From a virus (Duplodnaviria > Caudoviricetes): a stretch of DNA of 50,379 bases. Made by a program: the position numbers and the translations under genes. How positions within the stretch are numbered: the first letter of the stretch is position 1; every line of letters starts with the position of its first letter. The stretch lies in IMG/VR virus record IMGVR_UViG_3300035049_000200, positions 1-50,379 of that record, one strand, 5' to 3'. The notes beneath the pieces are model-generated. The model was not told the origin of the DNA, ran no database searches, and saw only the letters and a list, made by a program, of their open reading frames with translations. Below, in pieces: positions 10,802-48,546 of this stretch.

Positions 10802-11200
10802 ATGAAGAGCGAAAAGAAACTTTTGGCAATTTTTGAGGAAGCCAAGAACAACAAGAAGACTAAACGGGATTATTATTATAATTTTAATAGTTTTCAAGAT
10901 GATTGTAAAAACTTTTTAAAAGACATTAGGAATAATAAAGTTGTAATGGCAATGCGGGTTAGTCGTTCGGGAACGATGAGGCGATTTAATGTTAATAAAT
11001 ATAATATGCTATTGAATATTTGTTATCACGGCAAAATGGACTGGAACGAAGTTAAAGTTGGCGGTTGTGGTATGGATATGAGCTGGCACTTATTATTTAC
11101 TACCTGCGAATTGATAGCTACTAAGGGAGAGATTGATAAACATTTATTAAATTCTAAATGTAGTAGTCAACAATTATTAGTGGACAAAGAACTTTTATAA
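10802..11200 (+). CDS. Conserved phage protein (VSRSG...GCGMDM family), function unknown
   Basis: RVSRSGTMR and VGGCGMDM motifs. Confidence 0.8.
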   Translation: MKSEKKLLAIFEEAKNNKKTKRDYYYNFNSFQDDCKNFLKDIRNNKVVMAMRVSRSGTMRRFNVNKYNMLLNICYHGKMDWNEVKVGGCGMDMSWHLLFTTCELIATKGEIDKHLLNSKCSSQQLLVDKELL

Positions 11201-11228
11201 TTTATACTATATAATTAACTTTATTCTT

Positions 11229-11366
11229 ATGATTTTGTTTAGAATTAAAAAAACTGGTGAATTCTTTTATAGTAATTATATTGATTATTTTAACAATTTT
11301 GTTTCAATTGGAGATTATAGAAACAATAAATTGATTAAATTTTCAGAGGTTGAAAAAGTTGATTGA
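11229..11366 (+). CDS. 45-aa hypothetical protein
   Basis: MILFRIKKTGEFFY...FSEVEKVD; fills the gap. Confidence 0.55.
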   Translation: MILFRIKKTGEFFYSNYIDYFNNFVSIGDYRNNKLIKFSEVEKVD

Positions 11367-11392
11367 TTGTTATTATAATTAAATTTGTTTTT

Positions 11393-11488
11393 ATGTCTGA
11401 ACCAAAAATTGATGATATAGAATTGAGCCTTGATGAGGTTGCGATGGCGGAGTCAATGGGACTAGAAGATTACATTGACAATGATTAA
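11393..11488 (+). CDS. 31-aa highly acidic peptide
   Basis: MSEPKIDDIELSLDEVAMAESMGLEDYIDND (11 D/E). Confidence 0.55.
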   Translation: MSEPKIDDIELSLDEVAMAESMGLEDYIDND

Positions 11489-11503
11489 ATTAGTTGATAT
11501 AAT
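11475..11503 (+). promoter_or_regulatory. Perfect consensus promoter
   Basis: TTGACA-17-TATAAT with extended TG. Confidence 0.85.
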
Positions 11504-11509
11504 TTAATT

Positions 11510-11576
11510 AGATTAAGATTGAAATTTGTTTTTGTTTTTGTTGCAAGAAGCCCTAGTTTAAAGACTGGGGTTTTTT
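11510..11576 (+). ncRNA. Candidate ~65-nt small RNA
   Basis: Consensus promoter followed almost at once by a terminator, with no ATG between. Confidence 0.45.
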
Positions 11577-11582
11577 GTTTTT
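11545..11582 (+). terminator. Intrinsic terminator
   Basis: AAGAAGCCCTAGTTT / AGACTGGGGTTTTTT plus T tract. Confidence 0.8.
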
Positions 11583-11865
11583 GGCGGGAAATGTTTTTTG
11601 ATTGGTTTTTATAACTACTAATTTATCAATTATTATATAGTATAAATTATAATAGATTTAATTTTCTTTTAATTTATTGATTTAGTTATTTTTATTGTCT
11701 TTTGTAGGTTGTTGATTGCTTTTCTTTTTGGCTTGATTATATGGTTTTATTGTGATTAAGGGGTTATTTAATGATTTTAAAGTTTGTTAGAATGGATTTT
11801 GATGGGTTGTTTTGGGGGCTGGAAGTCTATTATTACCCAAAACAAGGCTTTTACAAAAAAGAGAC

Positions 11866-11895
11866 TTGACATTTTAGTTGAATACAAGTTAGAAT
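11866..11895 (+). promoter_or_regulatory. Sigma70-type promoter
   Basis: TTGACA-18-TAGAAT. Confidence 0.6.
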
Positions 11896-11901
11896 AAAAG
11901 C

Positions 11902-12092
11902 GTATAAAGTAATTTAGGCAATAAGTAAGTGGTCGTTAGTCTTCTAAACGGCTATTAACCTTATTGTCTCAATCTTTATACAAGCACCTTAAAAGCCAAC
12001 AGTTAATAGCCATTTATAAGATTAAAGCACCACTATATATAGTGGTGTTTTATTATATAAACATCTAGTTATTGATTATTGGCTTATTTAAG
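11902..12092 (+). ncRNA. Candidate structured RNA made of two long imperfect hairpins
   Basis: Hairpins 11902-11981 and 11988-12092 with several G-U pairs on the + strand, directly after a promoter. Confidence 0.5.
12028..12047. promoter_or_regulatory. 20-bp perfect palindrome, NrdR-box-like
   Basis: CACCACTATATATAGTGGTG; core CACTATATATAGTG fits acaCwAtATaTwGtg. Confidence 0.5.
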
Positions 12093-12101
12093 AGGTTGAG
12101 T

Positions 12102-12129
12102 ATGTCGCACAATCTACATTTTGCGACAT
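12102..12129. other. dif-like tyrosine-recombinase site (11-6-11)
   Basis: ATGTCGCACAA-TCTACA-TTTTGCGACAT; arms 10/11 inverted; 17/28 identical to E. coli dif. Confidence 0.6.
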
Positions 12130-12595
12130 AAAACAATCCGACCCCCAGGGGGGTGGCAATTTAAATATAGTTACTTGACCCCTCTCCCCCTCTCCACTTT
12201 CCAAATAAGACCTTTTTTAAACTCTAATAAATCCCTTAAACAAGCTAATAAACTAAGATTTTCTGATTTTTTATTCTTTAATCGTTACTAGGTAAATTTT
12301 CTAAAAGTAGGTAAATCGTTTTCCCCCAAAAATTTTTACAAAAAGGGAAAAAGATAATCCTCTGGAAGTATAATAAATAAGCCTAAAAGATGAAATTTTC
12401 TAAAATTTCTAAATTTACAAAAAAGATTAGTTTTAAGTGGTATAAGTTGATTATTTTCTTCGAAAAATTCCCGTATAATTTTATAAAAAAAGGCTTAGAT
12501 AAGGCAAAAAGATTTTTTAATAAAGTAGTCTGTTTTATTGTCAAGTCAGAAAAGAAAAACAAAAAAAGGCTTAAATAAGGTAATTTTAAATATTT

Positions 12596-13249
12596 ATGGC
12601 TGTTAAAAAGCTTCAAGGAAAAAGAGGCAAGGATAAAAAGAAGAGAAAAAAGAAAGATTTTTCGAAACCAGTTGCACTTAAAAATCAAGAATTGGAGTTT
12701 TGGTTTGAAACATTTGATATGGTTGAGGAGAAGATGAAGGATTATATTGAAACTCCCAAGGTTAAGAAATATTTGAAGGATAATAGTAAGGGGAGAGCTA
12801 CTAAGTTGTCTTTACAGGAATTTATTAAGAATGGGTTGAAATATTTTAGGAAAGCTATGGAGGCAGGTAGGAGCTTCACTATTAGTGGTTTATGTCTTTA
12901 TTTGGACATTTCTACTACTACTTTTATAGCGATGGAGCAACAAGGGAATAAGGCTTACGTGAATGATGCTTTTAAAGTACCAGCACTAGCCTTTAGGAGT
13001 TTAATAGGAATGTTTCATGAGGAAATGGGTAATCGAAAAAGTAATCCTATTTTCCACATGTTTGCGTTGAAGTCTATGAGAGGAGGGTTTCAGGAGACTT
13101 TGGATGTCAATATTTATAGTAATCACGGGACGGGGCTATCTCAAGATGAACGGGAGAAATTAAGAGCTAAAGTTAGGACTTTCTCAGAAAAAGAACAGAA
13201 ACCCCAATTAGCAGGTAAAAGCAGTTTGAAATATGGCAAAGACAGTTAA
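12596..13249 (+). CDS. terS: Terminase small subunit
   Basis: TISGLCLYLDIS HTH-like motif of P22 gp3-type TerS; IF.MFALK; directly upstream of TerL. Confidence 0.8.
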   Translation: MAVKKLQGKRGKDKKKRKKKDFSKPVALKNQELEFWFETFDMVEEKMKDYIETPKVKKYLKDNSKGRATKLSLQEFIKNGLKYFRKAMEAGRSFTISGLCLYLDISTTTFIAMEQQGNKAYVNDAFKVPALAFRSLIGMFHEEMGNRKSNPIFHMFALKSMRGGFQETLDVNIYSNHGTGLSQDEREKLRAKVRTFSEKEQKPQLAGKSSLKYGKDS

Positions 13250-30786: not shown

Positions 30787-33700
30787 ATGGGTCTTTATCA
30801 ATCTACATTAAAAAAACCTGAGATAAGAACTCAGAATAATATAGAACCTCCAGAAGCAGAAGAAAAAATGCCTGGTTTTGGTGACTTCCTAAAGTCTTCT
30901 ATTTATAGAAGTGCAAGAGGATTAGTCGGTGGTTTAGAAAAAGCTGGGATGGGAATTGAAACAATAGGAGAACGTATGACAGCTGAAAATCCGCTTACTG
31001 CGTTTGATTCGACAGAAGCTTTTAAGAAGAAGTTTGAGACCGAGACTAAAGCCCCTGATGTTGTGAAAACAGAAGAAGATATTAAACGAGAAGAAGCTAG
31101 AAAAAAATTCTTTGAACCAGCTGATGAGCTAGTAAACAAAGGACTTAATATAGTTGGTGAAAAAGTTGTTAAACCTTATGGAAATTTGATTAAAGAAGGA
31201 TACCAAGCTATTAATGAAAGTCTAGCAAAAGGTGAAGAAAGTTGGGTTCATAAATTCTATCGACAACCTACTACAGATGAAGAGGGAAAAATGAGATGGG
31301 GTTATGTTTTACGACCTGATGTTGCTTCCCAATATGTATTTGAAATGATAGGTCAAATGTCTCCTGCTCTAGGAGCAGCTTATATTACTGGTGGGACAAC
31401 TCCAGTGGCTGTTTATATGGGGAGTGTTGAATTAGGAAGTTCTTACGACGATTTTAGCCAGAGTTTTGCAGCTCAAGAAGGTGTCCCTGTTGAAGAATTA
31501 TCAGAAGAGAAGAAACAAAAAGCCTTTGAACAAGCGTTTCTTTACGCTGGTATTTCAGCTTACCTAGAAAAACTTCCTTTTGATGAAGTAATGAAAACAG
31601 GAATAAGACCTACTCGCTCTTTTGTTCAAAAAGCTTTGAAAGAAGCTCCTTTAGATATGTTAAAGCAAGCTGTGAAAGAAGGTGGGACAGAAGCTGCTCA
31701 ACAATTTACTCAAAATGCTATTGCTAAATACGGCGGAGCAGACCCAGATAGAAATCTTATGAATGGCGTGGTAGAAAGTGCTTATGCAGGAGCTGTTACT
31801 GGTTTGGCTTTTGGTGTGATTCCTTCTATCACTTCAGAAAGGGCGACACCTCAGCAACAGCAAGCTATTGATAACATCCAGCAAACCAAGCAACAATATG
31901 CACAAAATTTAAAAGATAAAAAGGCTGGAGATTTATTTAAAAAAGGCGAAAAAATAGCTGAAGTTCAAAGAACTCTAGCCCAGGATGATGCTGTTATGTT
32001 TCAAAAAATGGGCGAAACTGAAATTATGCAGGATGGAAGGCTTAAACCAGCAGTTGTTAAATATCGGTTAAATGATGTTTCTCAAAAACTTGAGAATATA
32101 GCTGGGGAAAAAGGCAAACAAATCGCCAAGTATGTTGAATCTATGGTTAAGCCTCAGGAGTTCAACAGTTATAATGAATTTACTGCTGCGGTGGAGAAAT
32201 CTTTAATAGAAGCCTTGCCTCCAATGGAAGCTAAAAATTTTTATGAAACTCTTCAGAAAGAAATGAAAGAGCCAACAACTTTGGAAACCAAAACACCAGC
32301 TGAAACTACTAATATTTCTGTCGAGCAAGCTAAAATAGAAGGCGACCCTGTTCATAACATGATTATTGATAATATTTCTAGGAATGGAGAAATTAATTTA
32401 AAACAAACAACAGCACCAATATCTAGAATTAATTATGACACTGGTTTCCAAGACGCTGATTTTGGGACTGACCCACAATCCACAAATGCTTTAGCTCAAG
32501 TTAAAGCTGGAGAAATCAAGCCCATAGTAGTTAAATTAGTGGACAGTCAATTACAAGTTCAAGATGGCAACCACACTTTATGGGCTTTAAAACAGTTAGG
32601 TAAAGATGTCGCTGAAGTTATTGTTGCAGAACCAGATTTTAATGAGGCAGCCCCACTATTTACTCAAAGAGAGACCGTTGAAGTAGTCCCTGGAAGAGAG
32701 CAGGTTGCTTCTCCCCAAGTCGAGCAAAGAGTTAAGGGACTAGCGACTGAATTACAACAAGAAGGAGAAACTCTCCAACAAACTGAAGCTCAAATAACAA
32801 GAGGAGAGACTCCCACTGTCGCTCAAGGTGTAGCAACAGCTCAAAACATCATTCCAAGAGAAGGAATGCGGTATGTTTATAAAGAAGCCCAAAGACAAGG
32901 TGTAGCCGATACTTTAGGAAAAGGAATGAGTAAAGCTCTAAGTGAAAGTGAAATAGCTAGTTTAAAACCAGCACAACAGGCTGTTTTAAGAATGGGGTTA
33001 GAGAGCGTTGCCGCCAACGAAGGGATGGCAGAAGGAGCTATTATCCAAAATATTCAGAATTTAGGGGGTTTAGTGCCTAAAGTTGCTGAACCTGCTCAAA
33101 CTTTTGCTAGTCGAGAAGAAACTTCAGCGGAGGTAACGGCTGAAGCTAAGAAAGCTGAAATTCCTGAGATACCAACTAAAAAATTAAGTGAACTCGACCA
33201 GACTATTAGAACTGATGCTACTCCAGAAGCTCGAGAAGAAAGAGCTGTTTTAAGAAAAGAAATATCGTCAAAACTAAAAGAAGGAGCTACTACTTTTGTG
33301 AATGTTAAGGGTGGTAAAAATAAGGCAGATGCTTTCTCTTTATCAGTCAAGAAACTTTCTAACGGAAAGCATGGTTTTGCTATTACAATGAATACTCCTG
33401 GAAATAGTCGAGCAATAAATTATGTAGGTAAATTTTCTACTGCTGATAAAGCCAAAAGAATGGGAGTTCAAAGAGCAATTAGAATGGTTGAAGCCGCTAG
33501 ACAAGCTGGAGTTCCAGTTGCTGGATTGAATAAAATAAAAACAGCTTTGATGCAGGCTAACAAAAAGCTTGGTAAAAGAGCCTTGCCTACTGAAAAAATT
33601 CAAAAGGTTGTAAAAGAAACTAGAAGCCAAGTAGCCGAAAGAGAAAAAGAAGCTGCCAGAAAATTAGCTGAAAGAGATAGAGCTGAAAGAAAACCTGGTA

Positions 33701-36700
33701 AAAAAGAAATAAATAAATATGAAGAACATATTGATAAATTTGAACACATGGAGCTTCCAGAGATGGTTAATATAGTCAAAGAACTAACTGGCAAAGCTCC
33801 TTTCTTGAAAAAATTTAGAGAAAGACAGGCTGGTGTAGTTGGAGGAATGTTTATGCCAGCTTCTGCCAGAATCGCTATCAACCCAACTATTGCTTCCAGC
33901 GAAAAAGCCGTTAGTCAAACCATGGCTCATGAAATAGGTCATTTAGTTGACTTCTTACCTGATAATACAATGAACCGAGGAACTCTATTGGGAAGAGTGC
34001 TTACTTTGCGGAATTTTATGAAAAAAAGTTTCGGAGATTTAACAGACCAAACTATGAGGGATGAACTTTGGGCTTTATCCCAAGAGTGGAGACCTGTTGG
34101 GCAAAATCCTTCTGATTCTTTCCTGAAATACAGAAAAAGTTCTCCAGAACTTTATGCGGATGCTATTAGCGTAATGCTTAACGACCCTGATTTACTTCAA
34201 AGAACAGCCCCTACTTTTTATAAGAATTTCTTTAAATACCTAGATAGAAAACCTAAAGTTAAACAAGCCTTCTTCGATACTTGGGAAATTATCAATAAAG
34301 GTGAGGAAGCCTTATTATCTAAACGGCAAGAAACTATTTATCAAATGTTTCAAAAAGGAGAAGAAGTTTTTAAAATTAAAAGAGAGGAAAAAGACGAAGC
34401 TAAATATAGTATGGCTTTTAAATTAAAAACTGAACTGATTGATAGGAATCAAATAATGATTAATAAGGTTAATAAAGCTAAAGCTGAAGGCAAAAATGTT
34501 TCTGATGAGACTAATCCTATTTATTTCTTGGAGGAATATAATTACATGGCTGGGAAAATTAAAGCCTTTGTTGAAACTGAAGTTCAGCCTATTTTAGCAA
34601 CTCTTCAAGAAAATGGGCTAACTTGGGAAAATTTCGGTGAATTAATGCTTTTAGAAAGAGCTGCTAACGAGCGAGGTAAAATGGCTAACCCAGGCGGATT
34701 CAACAAAAGAACAGCTGAAAATCAAATTGAGTTCTTGAGAAACAACTTAGGAAATGAAAAATTTGAATTATTAAAATCTCAAGTAAAGAAATTCAGACAA
34801 AGCACTGATGTTGTATTAGTCGAAGCTGAAAAGTCTGGTCTATACACTCCTGAGATGATGGAGACAATCAAAGCTAATAAGAGTTATGCTACTTTCCAAG
34901 TAGTAGATTATTTGGAGGATTATGTCCCAGCTTCAATTAAAAAACAAGTTGGAACTTATGCTGATGTTGCTAATCCTGGAACTTCAACTGTGATGAAGAT
35001 GATTAGTATTATCCGAGCAACTGAAACAAACAACGCCAAAAATTCAATGGTGAAATTCTTAAAAGAACATGAAGCTGATGAAATCCAAGAAGCAGATACT
35101 GTTTATGATGGTAAAATTCATAAAGCAGTTGAGCCTAAAGAAAAAGGGAAAGGTTTATTTACTGTTATGGAAGAAGGCAAGGTTGTTGGATATTATATGG
35201 ATTCCTATATGGTGGATATTTTTGATAGAAATGCCACTCAAACTAACAGCCAGTTTTTTATTCCAGTTCTGAGAACTATCAACCAGAAATTAACTAGACC
35301 TCTATTAATTCAATATAACCCTGGCTTTATGGGGTTCAACTTGGCTAGGGATTTTTGGAGATTCTGGAAAAATTTACCAGACATGGGTTTTATCGAATCT
35401 TTTCAAAGATATAAGGGAGCGGTTAAACCTGCTATGGCTAGAGTTCTTGGTAAGTTTGACCCGCTTATTAATGAGATGGAACAAAATGGTGTTTTAAGCA
35501 TCACTTACAATGAAATAGTTTCAGGTCAAGATACTTTGGATGCTCAAATTGATAGGGTTATTGAAAAATCTGGAGTAACCCAAATGACTCCTAAAAAAAG
35601 AAACAAAATGCTAGCTCCTTTTATGGAAATTTTGGACTTTATTGATAAAACTGGGCAAGTTGTAGAAACTTTACCGAAAGTAGCTGGTTATCAGTATTTA
35701 AAAGAATCTAATATTTTCTCCGAGAAAGAGATGCGGAGCTTCGTGAGGACTTCTATCGGGTCACCAGACTTCTTCAGAAGAGGTTCTGGGTATGGTTGGA
35801 CTAATGAAGTGTTCTTGTTTTCTAACGCTATTAAGGAAGCAATCAGGGCTGATGTGAGTGTTATGAAAAATCCTACAACTAGGAACGGTTATTGGATGAA
35901 AACCGCTACTTCAACTTTTGCACCGAAGATTCTTATGTTGGCTGCCGCTGGCGGACTTCTAGGAGAACCTTTAAAAGAAATGTTTAAGAACATTTCAGAA
36001 TATGACAAAACAAATTATATTTGTGTGCCTCTTGGTGTTGATAAAAATGGCAAAACTATGTATTTGAGAATCCCTCTTGATGAAACTGGTAGATTTTTAG
36101 GAGGAATGTTGTGGAAGACTATGACTTTTGGTAAAAGCGAAGAAAGTATTGGAGCTAGTGTAATGCAGTTATTATCTTATACAGGTGGTCAATTACCTAG
36201 TCTTTCTCCAGTTCTTGATACAGCAGTTGCTGCTAAACAATATGCTCAAGGGAAAAATCCTTATGACTTCTTTAGAGGACGAAGTATTATTCCTGATAGA
36301 GAATTTCAAGCTGGAGGTATGGATGCCTTTAAGCCATTCCTTTTGTGGTCTTTCCAAAATATGGGGGCGAATGTTCTCCTTAATTTTAACGTTCTTGAAA
36401 AAACTCCTGGAAGTAAGACCTTCGGAGAAAAAACCTTAGAACTTCCTGTTGTAAGTAATTTCTTTGGAAGATGGATGAGAATTTCTGATTACGGTCAAAT
36501 CGAAGAAGCTAGAAGAATCAATTCTAAAACTCAAAAAGAAAATAGCCAAAGGTTAATTAAATGGGAAAAAGAAATTAACAAAGCTGTTAGAGAATATAAA
36601 GATGGTGATTCTGGACTAGGACGTAGGTCTCAGATAGAAAGGAAATTAATTAAAGAACTTTTAGGAGATAATCCTGACTCAAGACAAGCCAGTTATATTA

Positions 36701-36900
36701 AGAACAAATTCCAAAAGACTATTTCTAAGGGGTATAGCGACACTAAAACCAGAGCGGTTTTGTCAGCTTATACAAATGATGCTAAGATAAAGATACTAGA
36801 AAAATATAAAAAAGAGCTGTCAGCTGTTGAATTTAAAAATTTCTTGAATGATTTAAAAGAACAAGGGATTATAAGTAAAACTGTTTATAGTGAATTTTAA
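30787..36900 (+). CDS. Large polyvalent (DarB-like) ejection protein: ParB-like domain, zincin HEIGH, LPD38-like C-terminus
   Basis: EGGTEAAQ; IKPIVV...QDGNHT (aa ~593); AHEIGH (aa ~1048)...ELYAD; YLRIP...N..FFRGRSIIP. Confidence 0.8.
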   Translation: MGLYQSTLKKPEIRTQNNIEPPEAEEKMPGFGDFLKSSIYRSARGLVGGLEKAGMGIETIGERMTAENPLTAFDSTEAFKKKFETETKAPDVVKTEEDIKREEARKKFFEPADELVNKGLNIVGEKVVKPYGNLIKEGYQAINESLAKGEESWVHKFYRQPTTDEEGKMRWGYVLRPDVASQYVFEMIGQMSPALGAAYITGGTTPVAVYMGSVELGSSYDDFSQSFAAQEGVPVEELSEEKKQKAFEQAFLYAGISAYLEKLPFDEVMKTGIRPTRSFVQKALKEAPLDMLKQAVKEGGTEAAQQFTQNAIAKYGGADPDRNLMNGVVESAYAGAVTGLAFGVIPSITSERATPQQQQAIDNIQQTKQQYAQNLKDKKAGDLFKKGEKIAEVQRTLAQDDAVMFQKMGETEIMQDGRLKPAVVKYRLNDVSQKLENIAGEKGKQIAKYVESMVKPQEFNSYNEFTAAVEKSLIEALPPMEAKNFYETLQKEMKEPTTLETKTPAETTNISVEQAKIEGDPVHNMIIDNISRNGEINLKQTTAPISRINYDTGFQDADFGTDPQSTNALAQVKAGEIKPIVVKLVDSQLQVQDGNHTLWALKQLGKDVAEVIVAEPDFNEAAPLFTQRETVEVVPGREQVASPQVEQRVKGLATELQQEGETLQQTEAQITRGETPTVAQGVATAQNIIPREGMRYVYKEAQRQGVADTLGKGMSKALSESEIASLKPAQQAVLRMGLESVAANEGMAEGAIIQNIQNLGGLVPKVAEPAQTFASREETSAEVTAEAKKAEIPEIPTKKLSELDQTIRTDATPEAREERAVLRKEISSKLKEGATTFVNVKGGKNKADAFSLSVKKLSNGKHGFAITMNTPGNSRAINYVGKFSTADKAKRMGVQRAIRMVEAARQAGVPVAGLNKIKTALMQANKKLGKRALPTEKIQKVVKETRSQVAEREKEAARKLAERDRAERKPGKKEINKYEEHIDKFEHMELPEMVNIVKELTGKAPFLKKFRERQAGVVGGMFMPASARIAINPTIASSEKAVSQTMAHEIGHLVDFLPDNTMNRGTLLGRVLTLRNFMKKSFGDLTDQTMRDELWALSQEWRPVGQNPSDSFLKYRKSSPELYADAISVMLNDPDLLQRTAPTFYKNFFKYLDRKPKVKQAFFDTWEIINKGEEALLSKRQETIYQMFQKGEEVFKIKREEKDEAKYSMAFKLKTELIDRNQIMINKVNKAKAEGKNVSDETNPIYFLEEYNYMAGKIKAFVETEVQPILATLQENGLTWENFGELMLLERAANERGKMANPGGFNKRTAENQIEFLRNNLGNEKFELLKSQVKKFRQSTDVVLVEAEKSGLYTPEMMETIKANKSYATFQVVDYLEDYVPASIKKQVGTYADVANPGTSTVMKMISIIRATETNNAKNSMVKFLKEHEADEIQEADTVYDGKIHKAVEPKEKGKGLFTVMEEGKVVGYYMDSYMVDIFDRNATQTNSQFFIPVLRTINQKLTRPLLIQYNPGFMGFNLARDFWRFWKNLPDMGFIESFQRYKGAVKPAMARVLGKFDPLINEMEQNGVLSITYNEIVSGQDTLDAQIDRVIEKSGVTQMTPKKRNKMLAPFMEILDFIDKTGQVVETLPKVAGYQYLKESNIFSEKEMRSFVRTSIGSPDFFRRGSGYGWTNEVFLFSNAIKEAIRADVSVMKNPTTRNGYWMKTATSTFAPKILMLAAAGGLLGEPLKEMFKNISEYDKTNYICVPLGVDKNGKTMYLRIPLDETGRFLGGMLWKTMTFGKSEESIGASVMQLLSYTGGQLPSLSPVLDTAVAAKQYAQGKNPYDFFRGRSIIPDREFQAGGMDAFKPFLLWSFQNMGANVLLNFNVLEKTPGSKTFGEKTLELPVVSNFFGRWMRISDYGQIEEARRINSKTQKENSQRLIKWEKEINKAVREYKDGDSGLGRRSQIERKLIKELLGDNPDSRQASYIKNKFQKTISKGYSDTKTRAVLSAYTNDAKIKILEKYKKELSAVEFKNFLNDLKEQGIISKTVYSEF

Positions 36901-43025: not shown

Positions 43026-43030
43026 AACCC

Positions 43031-43059
43031 TTGACAATATTTTCAGAATTATTTAAACT
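43031..43059 (+). promoter_or_regulatory. Sigma70-type promoter
   Basis: TTGACA-17-TAAACT. Confidence 0.7.
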
Positions 43060-43065
43060 ACAACT

Positions 43066-43590
43066 GTATTCATTTTATTTTTCTTCGAAATTTTAAATTC
43101 TTGTTTCTCGGGCTGAAAAAGAGCATTGTACTGCTAATTCTCAGCCCGAGGTTAGTGGTACAATGTTCTTTTTTTATGGAGTTTTGAGTTGATTTGGCTA
43201 AGTGTTTCTTCATTGTCACCCCTAGCCAAATCTATTTAGAACTTTAAATCTGACGAATAGTAATTGTAAGAAGAAAGTCTTTTGGTTTCACCCCTTTCTA
43301 CTTTTTTCTTACAATTGCTCTTTGTCCTAGTAAGATGGCTCTGTACCAATTGGGCTTTTACAACAAAGAGTTTTGACACGATACGACCGACCGACGGAAG
43401 CAAACTTTTATTATTTACATTTTTTACTTAGCGTTGAGCTAAGACCACTGGCTGAAGCAGTGATATACTTCGGCGGGGCTGGAAAGGTGTGAAGGATGAA
43501 AGGGGAACAACTTCTTGAGGGAGGGAGAGGAGAAGAAAAACATAAAAAAGGAGTAAGGGTTTATGTAGGGGCTAACGCCCTGCAAAATAA
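43066..43590 (+). ncRNA. Candidate large structured non-coding RNA (~520 nt)
   Basis: No ORF of 60 aa or more; interleaved A-B-A'-B' stems, two 23-27 bp hairpins with G-U pairs, more hairpins, G-rich 3' part. Confidence 0.65.
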
Positions 43591-43610
43591 AAATTAATTA
43601 ATACAAAAAA

Positions 43611-43796
43611 ATGACCCAAAAACCTCGAGAAAGTTATAAAACTAGGTATATAAGAATGAGTGATATAACTTGGGCTAGGTTGAAGAAATTAAAAAAAAAG
43701 AGTGGAAAAACTTGGAATTTATTTATACTAGAAGATTTAATATTAAGAAATGGAAAGACTAAAAAAAGAGATAAATCAATTACAGAAAAGAAATAA
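43611..43796 (+). CDS. Ribbon-helix-helix (CopG/Arc-like) DNA-binding protein
   Basis: TRYIRMSDITWARLKKLK..SGKTWNLFI. Confidence 0.7.
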   Translation: MTQKPRESYKTRYIRMSDITWARLKKLKKKSGKTWNLFILEDLILRNGKTKKRDKSITEKK

Positions 43797-44142
43797 GGAA
43801 TATTTAGATAAATTAAGAAAAAAAGCGACTAAAGCTGAAGTTGAGTTTAAAAAAATACTAGATGAGTTAAATGTTTACTATATTTTTCAGAAAGGATTTT
43901 TTGGGGATAGGTATCACTGTATAGTAGATTTTTATTTACCTAAACCTAAAAAGCTTTGTATCGAGATTGACGGGGAATATCATTTAAAAAAAGACCAAAT
44001 TATTAAAGATGAGAGAAAGAGGAAATTTTTAGTTGGGGTTAGAGGTTTTAAATTATTAAGATTTAAAAATAAAGAAGTTTTAAATAACAGAAAAAAAGTC
44101 AAAACTTATATTAAGAATTTATTAAATAACAATGAAAATTAA
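43750..44142 (+). CDS. DUF559 / Vsr-like endonuclease
   Basis: TKAE, IVDFY, IEIDGEYH, D..R..L...G.KLLRF.N. Confidence 0.9.
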   Translation: MERLKKEINQLQKRNKEYLDKLRKKATKAEVEFKKILDELNVYYIFQKGFFGDRYHCIVDFYLPKPKKLCIEIDGEYHLKKDQIIKDERKRKFLVGVRGFKLLRFKNKEVLNNRKKVKTYIKNLLNNNEN

Positions 44143-44641
44143 TGTTTACACCGATGGAGCGACAGTAGGTCATAATGGAAAACTAGGAACAGTCAAAGAA
44201 GTCGGTTTAGGAGTTTATATAGAGATTAGAGATTTAGAGGTAACAGAAGATTTTGGACATTTAACGACTTATTTAAAAGGAAATTTGGATTTTTCAGTAA
44301 GTGAAAAAAAGAAAGGAATTTCAAATAACGAAGCTGAATTTAAGGCTATAATTCTAGGGATAAGAACAGTTCTTCATTTTTTACAATCAATGCAATTAAA
44401 AACAGAAACCGCTATTATTAAATTCCACTCTGATTCTCAAATTATAGTTAATAGAATGAATGGGAGTAGAGCTAAAGGTCGATACGCTAATAAAAGAATG
44501 GATAATTTCCAAGACCAAGCTCTTAAACTTGTTGGGGAACATTTTACTAAAGAGCTGGTGAGTTTTAATTGGATTCCACGGGAAAAAAATGAGAAAGCTG
44601 ATGAGCTTTCTAAAAAGGCTTGTGAATTAACTTTAGAATAA
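44132..44641 (+). CDS. rnhA: Ribonuclease HI
   Basis: YTDGA, NNEAEF.A, SDSQ, WIPREKN..AD.LS. Confidence 0.92.
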   Translation: MKINVYTDGATVGHNGKLGTVKEVGLGVYIEIRDLEVTEDFGHLTTYLKGNLDFSVSEKKKGISNNEAEFKAIILGIRTVLHFLQSMQLKTETAIIKFHSDSQIIVNRMNGSRAKGRYANKRMDNFQDQALKLVGEHFTKELVSFNWIPREKNEKADELSKKACELTLE

Positions 44642-48313: not shown

Positions 48314-48546
48314 TGAGAGAAGGTATTAAGAGATTTAAAAAAAGACCAATGGAAGTTGAGGCTATTCAATGGGATGGTCTTATAGAACCAACTTTAGCCG
48401 AGATAGCTTTGTGGTGTGATGAATCTTGGGCAGATGAAAGTATGCTTGGGGATGACTGTAGTTTGATTATTCCTAATCTCCAACAACGACTGGAATTTTT
48501 TAATAGAAATTTTGCTGATGTTGCCAGCTTGGATTATACTTTTTAA
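48313..48546 (+). pseudogene. 5' half of the PGDYG-like gene fused to unrelated sequence at 48475
   Basis: FKKRPMEVEAIQWDG N-terminus; loses the TLEG..GEFYPC C-terminus present at 106-221. Confidence 0.7.
48371..48475. repeat. Direct repeat copy 2 of bases 1-105
   Basis: Read directly. Confidence 0.95.

Follow-up and report, generated by a model that had tools for sequence, protein, structure and literature searches.

The question raised by this locus is what fills positions 43026-43610 of a phage genome, the only gap longer than about 100 nt between 38 and 50 kb, as the initial annotation had already pointed out. The window analyzed here is the whole of a 50,379-bp phage contig, which is rated as linear and 57% complete, carries nearly all of its genes on the + strand, and includes terminase, portal, and capsid genes (Pfam, PHROGs). 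The sequencing runs that bear this contig are oil-field metagenomes (22 DNA runs, with no RNA run among them), and the phage and its AT-rich relatives are presumably associated with Patescibacteria. The gap is followed by a 61-aa gene and genes encoding a DUF559 nuclease, an RNase H, and an SNF2 helicase. The non-coding element is likely an RNA, and its core recurs in some thirty phages and mobile elements that are unrelated to each other. It likely represents a structured RNA family that has not been described before, has an unusual zipper, and recurs in replication modules; its function is one that we infer.

The longest + strand frame inside the gap has 49 aa, and 43060-43600 is non-coding. 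This segment folds at -174.5 kcal/mol, with a z score against shuffles of -6.55 on the + strand vs -4.22 on the - strand, and G-U pairs account for 30 of 180 pairs in the + fold vs 13 of 148 in the - fold. The earlier observation that imperfect pairs are mostly G-U on the + strand holds for stem B/B', which has 19 Watson-Crick and four G-U pairs without a mismatch; the 43259/43319 helix has 15 Watson-Crick and two G-U pairs. The helices that had been proposed at 43107-43173, 43178-43245, 43252-43326, 43330-43361, 43427-43443, and 43564-43584 all appear in the predicted fold. A further hairpin, at 43446-43462, proved to be just a 5-bp option; the fold favors 43451-57 paired with 43468-74, which is backed by the natural variant G43472A (U-G pair to U-A in this interior hairpin). 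Variant contigs contain three stem changes, all of them pairing-preserving G-U/A-U swaps, and three loop changes, and are single contigs at depth 2-3 in which sequencing errors are possible. The other two stem variants, A43269G and G43273A, preserve pairs in the 43252-43326 hairpin, the 3' arm of which can alternatively pair with 43544-43559. The ends of the element can also be paired (43065-81 with 43589-605, 13/17), and a terminator scan found no terminator-like site at its 3' end. Positions 43665-43679 are complementary to 43221-43235, and therefore the RNA fold may extend into the downstream ribbon-helix-helix (RHH) gene, where an imperfect inverted repeat is found at 43621-43681.

Searches for known RNAs agreed with the first reading, in which the element was not recognized as a tRNA, tmRNA, RNase P, or intron. 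ARAGORN gave no tRNA or tmRNA match in the window, and no Rfam 15 family, including RNase P, introns, GOLLD, and ROOL, reached its gathering score; the best weak match in the window had an E value of 0.071 (22.7 bits vs a cut-off of 80). Rfam likewise gave no match at the element in the 32 related loci scanned. Matches away from the element were tRNAs, RNAI in ColE1, and a hammerhead in one member, L123, where a type II hammerhead ribozyme match (39 bits) lies at 2345-2409 on the - strand, about 1.2 kb 5' of the element. GOLLD, ROOL, HEARO, and ARRPOF resemble the element in size class and phage setting and differ, as do other Rfam families, in that none of them matches the window or these loci. 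A published set of viral candidate RNAs from IMG/VR comprises molecules of 29-151 nt (PMC10690425); six of its nine supplementary files hold no match, and a fragment may be listed in the other three. No description of the zipper motif turned up in the literature searched.

Features of the element and adjoining genes in the window
Feature	Position	Strand	Remarks
Promoter-like site, sigma-70-type	43031..43059	+	Predicted; transcript start predicted near 43066
Stems A/A' (10 bp) and B/B' (23 bp), then T-run	43107..43175	+	Predicted attenuator-like switch
Long hairpin	43178..43245	+	Sequence not conserved; different hairpins plus a small hydrophobic ORF in L001
Long hairpin	43252..43326	+	Kept in L001, 72% identity over 43264-43398
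Small hairpin	43330..43371	+	43363-43371 also pairable with 43317-43325
GA zipper and closing stem, 5' strand	43384..43400	+	Three CGAC units
Interior: long stem and three-way junction	43401..43510	+	Hairpins 43427-43443 and 43451-43474; same shape in L001
Closing stem and GA zipper, 3' strand	43511..43527	+	GAG GGAG GGAG
Purine/G-rich tail, predicted R-loop-prone	43528..43567	+	43470-43570 is 41% G and 7% C
Small terminal hairpin	43564..43584	+	Predicted fold
61-aa ribbon-helix-helix-like gene	43611..43796	+	Predicted regulator of the upstream promoter
RNase H gene	44132..44641	+	Pfam RNase_H, E 8.6e-08; phrog_531

The TTGACA-17-TAAACT site with which the gap had been said to begin is present and matches the consensus at 10 of 12 positions, a level that is by itself that of chance: 67 such sites were found in 36-50 kb vs 59.6 expected. 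Across the family, promoter-like sites of at least 10/12 lie 120-650 nt 5' of the core in 7 of the 13 AT-rich members with enough upstream DNA, and the background elsewhere in the same loci is 0.10 per 530 nt. The stems noted just 3' of the promoter are indeed present and interleaved (A 43107-16 with A' 43141-50; B 43116-38 with B' 43151-73), and are alternatives rather than a joint pseudoknot, because the interleaving leaves no connecting loop. A true pseudoknot at 43107-43173 was thus ruled out, as no loop could span the 23-bp helix. A/A' is completed first (-24.7 kcal/mol, 43100-43151), B/B' is stronger (-33.2 kcal/mol, 43100-43180), and a T-run stands at the end of the latter. The interleaved arrangement occurs once in the 50-kb contig, and the same stem architecture with unrelated sequence is found just 3' of the promoter in L001 and L086. 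A mutually exclusive terminator/antiterminator geometry followed by a U-run was predicted in 3 of 31 loci, namely the window and these two; the terminator scan omitted 43107-43175, as the loop is longer than 8 nt. As modeled, these interleaved 5' stems do look like a cis-acting switch.

The most conserved part of the element, at 43384-43400 and 43511-43527, had been missed by the initial annotation. Here, CGACCGACCGAC (43384-43395) opposes TGAGGGAGGGAG (43516-43527), so that C-G pairs alternate with predicted tandem G·A pairs, and the stem closed by this zipper covaries and encloses a junction with two hairpins. Tandem G·A pairing was deduced from predicted 2x2 loops. All members have the same core layout, which consists of CGAC repeats, GG, an interior of 75-138 nt, a pyrimidine pair, and (A/T)GAG GGAG repeats. 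The repeats oppose each other as C·A, followed by repeated A·G, G·A, C-G, and C-G, the core GG pairs with the pyrimidine pair, and the stem then extends through free sequence. Such a helix, in which two C-G pairs alternate with tandem G·A pairs over three to four units, is an unusual conserved RNA architecture. The 43-kb element has the only three-unit zipper in the whole contig.

Relatives were gathered from several searches. A close relative, L001, was obtained by an SNF2 search; it has the synteny of the window, the same series of domains, and a fold z score of -9.69. Its leader contains a 29-codon hydrophobic ORF (L001:3722-3811). An RHH search of viral contigs returned three loci, of which the L001 contig was relevant and L092 and L093 lay outside the comparison. 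Six pattern scans built on motifs common to the window and L001 gave 34, 46, 77, 19, 15, and 15 hits, or 206 in total, most of them due to chance. The scan with 19 hits was that of genome contigs and yielded one member (L171, the same element as L107). From the 206 hits, 30 distinct members, window included, were chosen by eye on the basis of extended repeats and context, and the list is open to bias because stem lengths had been seen before it was fixed. Duplicates were dropped (L036, L082, L091, L099, L110, L127, L139, L169, L171, L193, L199, L214, L216, and L230). For L205:3008-3120, a locus scored as chance, folding predicts both stem and zipper (P 0.84, 0.93), and it may be an overlooked member.

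Covariation among relatives, which had been proposed as a check, was supported by paired changes in the 30 members. Zipper positions 1-8 are largely imposed by the search patterns, whereas position 9 swaps as a pair (C-G in 23, G-C in 2, A-U in 1, and C·A in 4; n=30). At pairs 3-6 of the closing stem, which the patterns do not fix, 86 of 120 cells pair vs 48.0 in a swap null (maximum 66 in 20,000 swaps); with the ten GC-rich members collapsed to one, 59 of 84 cells pair vs 32.0 (maximum 49). In a 14-member alignment, 93.7% of cells pair and 11 double changes are seen, and none of 500 shuffles scored as high. Unconstrained folding predicted the zipper with P>0.5 for 28 of the 30 members (P 0.98 in the window) vs 2 of the 27 chance loci that contain these two motifs. 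With DNA energy parameters, which may undervalue G·A pairs, the zipper was not predicted. The 40 nt 3' of the zipper are enriched in G in 29 of 30 members, an excess that may come partly from ribosome-binding sites and the search pattern.

The members comprise phages and integrative elements with 27-64% GC; signs of the latter are a serine integrase in L149 and a nearby tRNA in L149 and L167. The 5' parts of the element are not conserved across subfamilies. An AT-rich subfamily of integrative elements (L107, L149, L156, and L167) has a 5' domain of its own about 100 nt 5' of the zipper, which appears to covary and may include a pseudoknot, and a second, inner GA zipper occurs in L107, L123, L149, and L156. 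Blastn gave only short chance hits, both when the element was searched against cultured phages and when GC-rich members were compared with plasmids and phages.

The genes that follow the core point to its setting. The RHH-like protein of the window has no family match of its own (Pfam, PHROGs) and aligns with the first downstream gene of eight other members, four of which match Arc-like PHROGs. A small RHH-like gene is the first one downstream in 10 of 30 members, and one such protein passes the RHH_1 cut-off. In L015, L106, L107, L114, L149, and L156, a short palindrome overlaps the RHH start codon or lies 5' of it, and is a candidate RHH operator. RNase H adjoins the element in 3 of 30 members, from two lineages (the window, L096, and L001); the gene is split over two frames in the last (L001:4778-5223). 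The RNase H of the window is predicted to trim an RNA-DNA hybrid to a primer. HNH and HTH genes are also found downstream across members, and a whole ORF lies between promoter and core in L086, L107, and L149.

In 7 of 30 members, the C-terminal half of a phage replication initiator is encoded downstream as a stand-alone ORF. Six of these (L095, L096, L121, L192, L196, and L197) have an ORF of 113-196 aa, 80-1,600 nt downstream, which matches only the C-terminal part (about 155-290) of replication-initiator/DnaD-like PHROGs; the seventh is G005 (L193/L170). In the complete genomes G001 (= L197) and G005, the C-terminal fragment is the only phrog_270 match, with frames of 135-139 aa. Among the ORFs scanned in the other 23 members, no initiator fragment was present. 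A genome-wide search that covered two families found no HTH_36 match over the cut-off in the 57%-complete window or in five member genomes. A search with the initiator fragments yielded five new loci, namely four full-length initiators (272-353 aa) and one fragment, L232. The zipper was absent from all four newly fetched full-length initiator loci, and no zipper or unusual fold was found upstream of the stand-alone C-terminal initiator of L232; the coupling of zipper and initiator fragment is therefore not strict. A non-coding gap precedes the initiator ORF of L232 (2145-2495), with the same short motif directly before the gene, and is perhaps another origin type.

Scans of 40 window proteins by Pfam and of 30 by PHROGs detected no polymerase, primase, or initiator, and the missing initiator proves little because the contig is only 57% complete. 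Positions 345-644 encode a 100-aa all-helical protein that may be a stand-alone DnaD-like domain and has 13 homologues of 88-144 aa. This is a weak lead: comparison with DnaD gave an Atlas value of 0.82 and a TM of 0.64, both below the bar, no Pfam, PHROG, or PDB match was obtained, and the best BFVD match had an E value of 1.8. A longer homologue was not found either, which is weak evidence.

Since the core lies, in several cases, exactly at the point where the initiator is missing its front half, it probably takes over the start of DNA copying from the protein. We consider it an even chance that the element contains the conserved single-strand-folding core of an RNA-primed, ColE1-like replication origin that works without an origin-binding initiator protein. 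RNA polymerase would start near 43066, and the A/A' vs B/B' switch would set, by attenuation at 43107-43175, the number of read-through transcripts. The read-through RNA would fold into the zipper rod with its G-rich 3' tail kept free, and this tail would re-anneal with the template, forming an R-loop directly ahead of position 43611. A 3' end for priming would come from run-off or from RNase H, which this phage itself encodes; the G-rich tail and the RNase H gene are compatible with a predicted persistent RNA-DNA hybrid that RNase H would cut and Pol I would extend. The displaced strand would then allow helicase loading, in GC-rich relatives via the stand-alone C-terminal initiator domain, or via a host protein, and the co-transcribed RHH protein would repress the promoter, thereby limiting copy number.

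The element was compared with ColE1 and eight related origins. As in ColE1/pMB1, where RNA II has ~550 nt (PMC8683028), promoter and gene are about 540 nt apart. Further likenesses are the predicted alternative 5' folds, the G-rich 3' part, the link to RNase H, the apparent lack of an origin-binding initiator in the clearest relatives, a small regulator gene directly downstream, and, for the GC-rich subfamily, three short motifs in collinear order. In contrast, RF00106 (RNA I) matches ColE1 but neither the window nor the members, and no antisense promoter is conserved (the single antisense site, 9/12 at 43291-43263, is not matched by one in L001). The regulator is RHH-like rather than Rop/Rom; no Rop was found among the 36 best profile hits of the downstream protein family, of which 18 have weak RHH-type Pfam matches. 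The element is found in phages and integrative elements, whereas ColE1 origins are confined to five gammaproteobacterial orders (PMC8683028).

Tests for common descent gave mixed results. An nhmmer profile of 11 GC-rich members had no match in ColE1, and a motif chain with a 12-nt block was not significant against it (26/60 and 6/60 nulls as high). A version with an 8-nt block, trained on the 11 GC-rich members and chosen post hoc after the 12-nt version had failed, placed its best chain in the whole of ColE1 within RNA II (918, 1080, and 1108). Nulls were as high in 4 of 120 cases for ColE1 and in 0 of 300 for each of three enterobacterial 1-kb loci; the chain was not significant for Aeromonas, Vibrio, and Pasteurella plasmid origins. 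With reverse training, members had a median of 10.1 vs 3.9 for 114 chance loci, and the window, at 4.3, scored as chance. The common upstream motif sits in a different pairing context in the predicted ColE1 fold, and no GA zipper was found in the nine ColE1-type loci. Homology to ColE1 RNA II is thus only suggested, for the GC-rich subfamily alone and by a post hoc test. The element may work like ColE1 and is only a possible member of that family.

The first reading had left a choice between a large ncRNA and a complex leader; an undescribed structured non-coding element, headed by a putative promoter and with one-strand selection, is supported, and the relatives point beyond both options to a replication-origin role. 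That it is a cis-regulatory 5' leader only, in which switch and zipper control the RHH and replication genes, for instance by protein binding and without priming, is unlikely. Such a leader would fit the constant position of the element 5' of co-oriented genes, the place of the RHH gene as the first of these in a third of the members, and the attenuator-like stems of the window, L001, and L086. The downstream genes are, however, heterogeneous (RHH, HNH, RNase H, initiator fragment, and HTH), a whole ORF separates promoter and core in three members, and the missing N-terminal half of neighboring initiators would be left unexplained. The proposal of selection on RNA rather than on DNA palindromes is supported by covariation and the natural G-U/A-U swaps, but the same covariation and strand bias fit folded single-stranded DNA. 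Exposed by transcription or by a passing fork, the + strand might then fold at an origin into a signal for assembly of a primosome or primase, which we regard as rather unlikely. Strand bias and covariation cannot separate RNA from single-stranded DNA, because in an R-loop the strand that is displaced is identical in sequence to the RNA. The replication context would be the same, and DNA, too, forms stable tandem G·A pairs; against it stand the G-U share of the + fold, the three G-U/A-U variants, and the failure of DNA parameters, with their possible bias against G·A pairs, to predict the zipper.

A free trans-acting ncRNA of early operons, such as a decoy or scaffold for a GGA- or double-strand-binding host protein, would account for the promoter-like site, the pairable ends, and the large size; the lack of a terminator-like 3' site, the fixed place in replication modules, and 5' parts that vary between subfamilies make it improbable. 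Despite the fact that CGAC and GGAG repeats are simple and that chance explains most pattern hits, a fold formed by chance, or the remains of a decayed gene with low-complexity repeats, is very improbable. Chance folding is already contradicted because the core stem covaries, and the z scores of the window and L001 also speak against it. A decayed gene was ruled out, as an open frame across the core is absent in 26 of 31 loci.

For the RNA-primed origin, partial precedents are available in other systems. Lambdoid initiator genes with an internal iteron origin (O-like, DnaD-like) hold the same position in the replication module, before a helicase loader or helicase, as seen in L096 (element, RNase H, DnaD-like, DnaC-like) and L213 (DnaB 1.3 kb downstream); here, by contrast, the N-terminal half and iterons are replaced by a non-coding fold, and the C-terminal part alone is kept. 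We know of no conserved large RNA fold for oriF and oriG of phage T4. At these R-loop origins, a promoter-driven transcript forms a persistent hybrid that starts replication (PMC12599619), as would be the case for the window element; T4 supplies its own replisome, unlike the window with its lack of polymerase and primase among the scanned proteins. Prophages of mycobacteriophages with RNA-based origins are a further precedent (PMC7157519). The cluster A phages RedRock and LadyBird have a RepA-less phage replicon that needs a non-coding transcript, but their origin regions have no zipper and adjoin parABS, from which they are directed away; no parABS was seen by the window element, and no Par match was found among the 40 (Pfam) and 30 (PHROGs) window proteins scanned.

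Many uncultured phages show no recognizable replication initiator. A bolder reading, doubtful though not far-fetched, is that, in widespread replicons of phages and integrative elements, an RNA fold now stands in for the DNA-binding half of the initiator. An R-loop-tethered transcript would use its zipper to dock the helicase-loading C-terminal domain of the initiator or a host equivalent, forming a ribonucleoprotein initiator; the RNA is possibly a distant relation of ColE1 RNA II, in a setting far from gammaproteobacterial plasmids. If the elements are indeed origins, a short searchable RNA motif for initiator-less origins would explain how replication starts in such phages, the range of RNA-primed replication would reach far past that of ColE1 plasmids and cluster A mycobacteriophages, and compact replicons might be obtained for hosts without genetic tools.

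Several other features of the window were observed. Bases 1-105 are 98% identical to 48371-48475, where the 48-kb copy switches to a different C-terminus; this duplication points to either a circular genome that bears an insertion or two variants wrongly joined. A second large ORF-poor region, at 11200-12596, lies 5' of the terminase small subunit gene; there, TTGACA-17-TATAAT occurs at 11475, a hairpin resembling a terminator lies near 11555-11575, and a 26-nt segment (11846-11871) is 88% like 43353-43378. Finally, 30787-36900 encodes a 2037-aa protein with no PHROG match and, as seen in its translation, a HEIGH zinc-peptidase-like motif; it is probably a virion injection protein.
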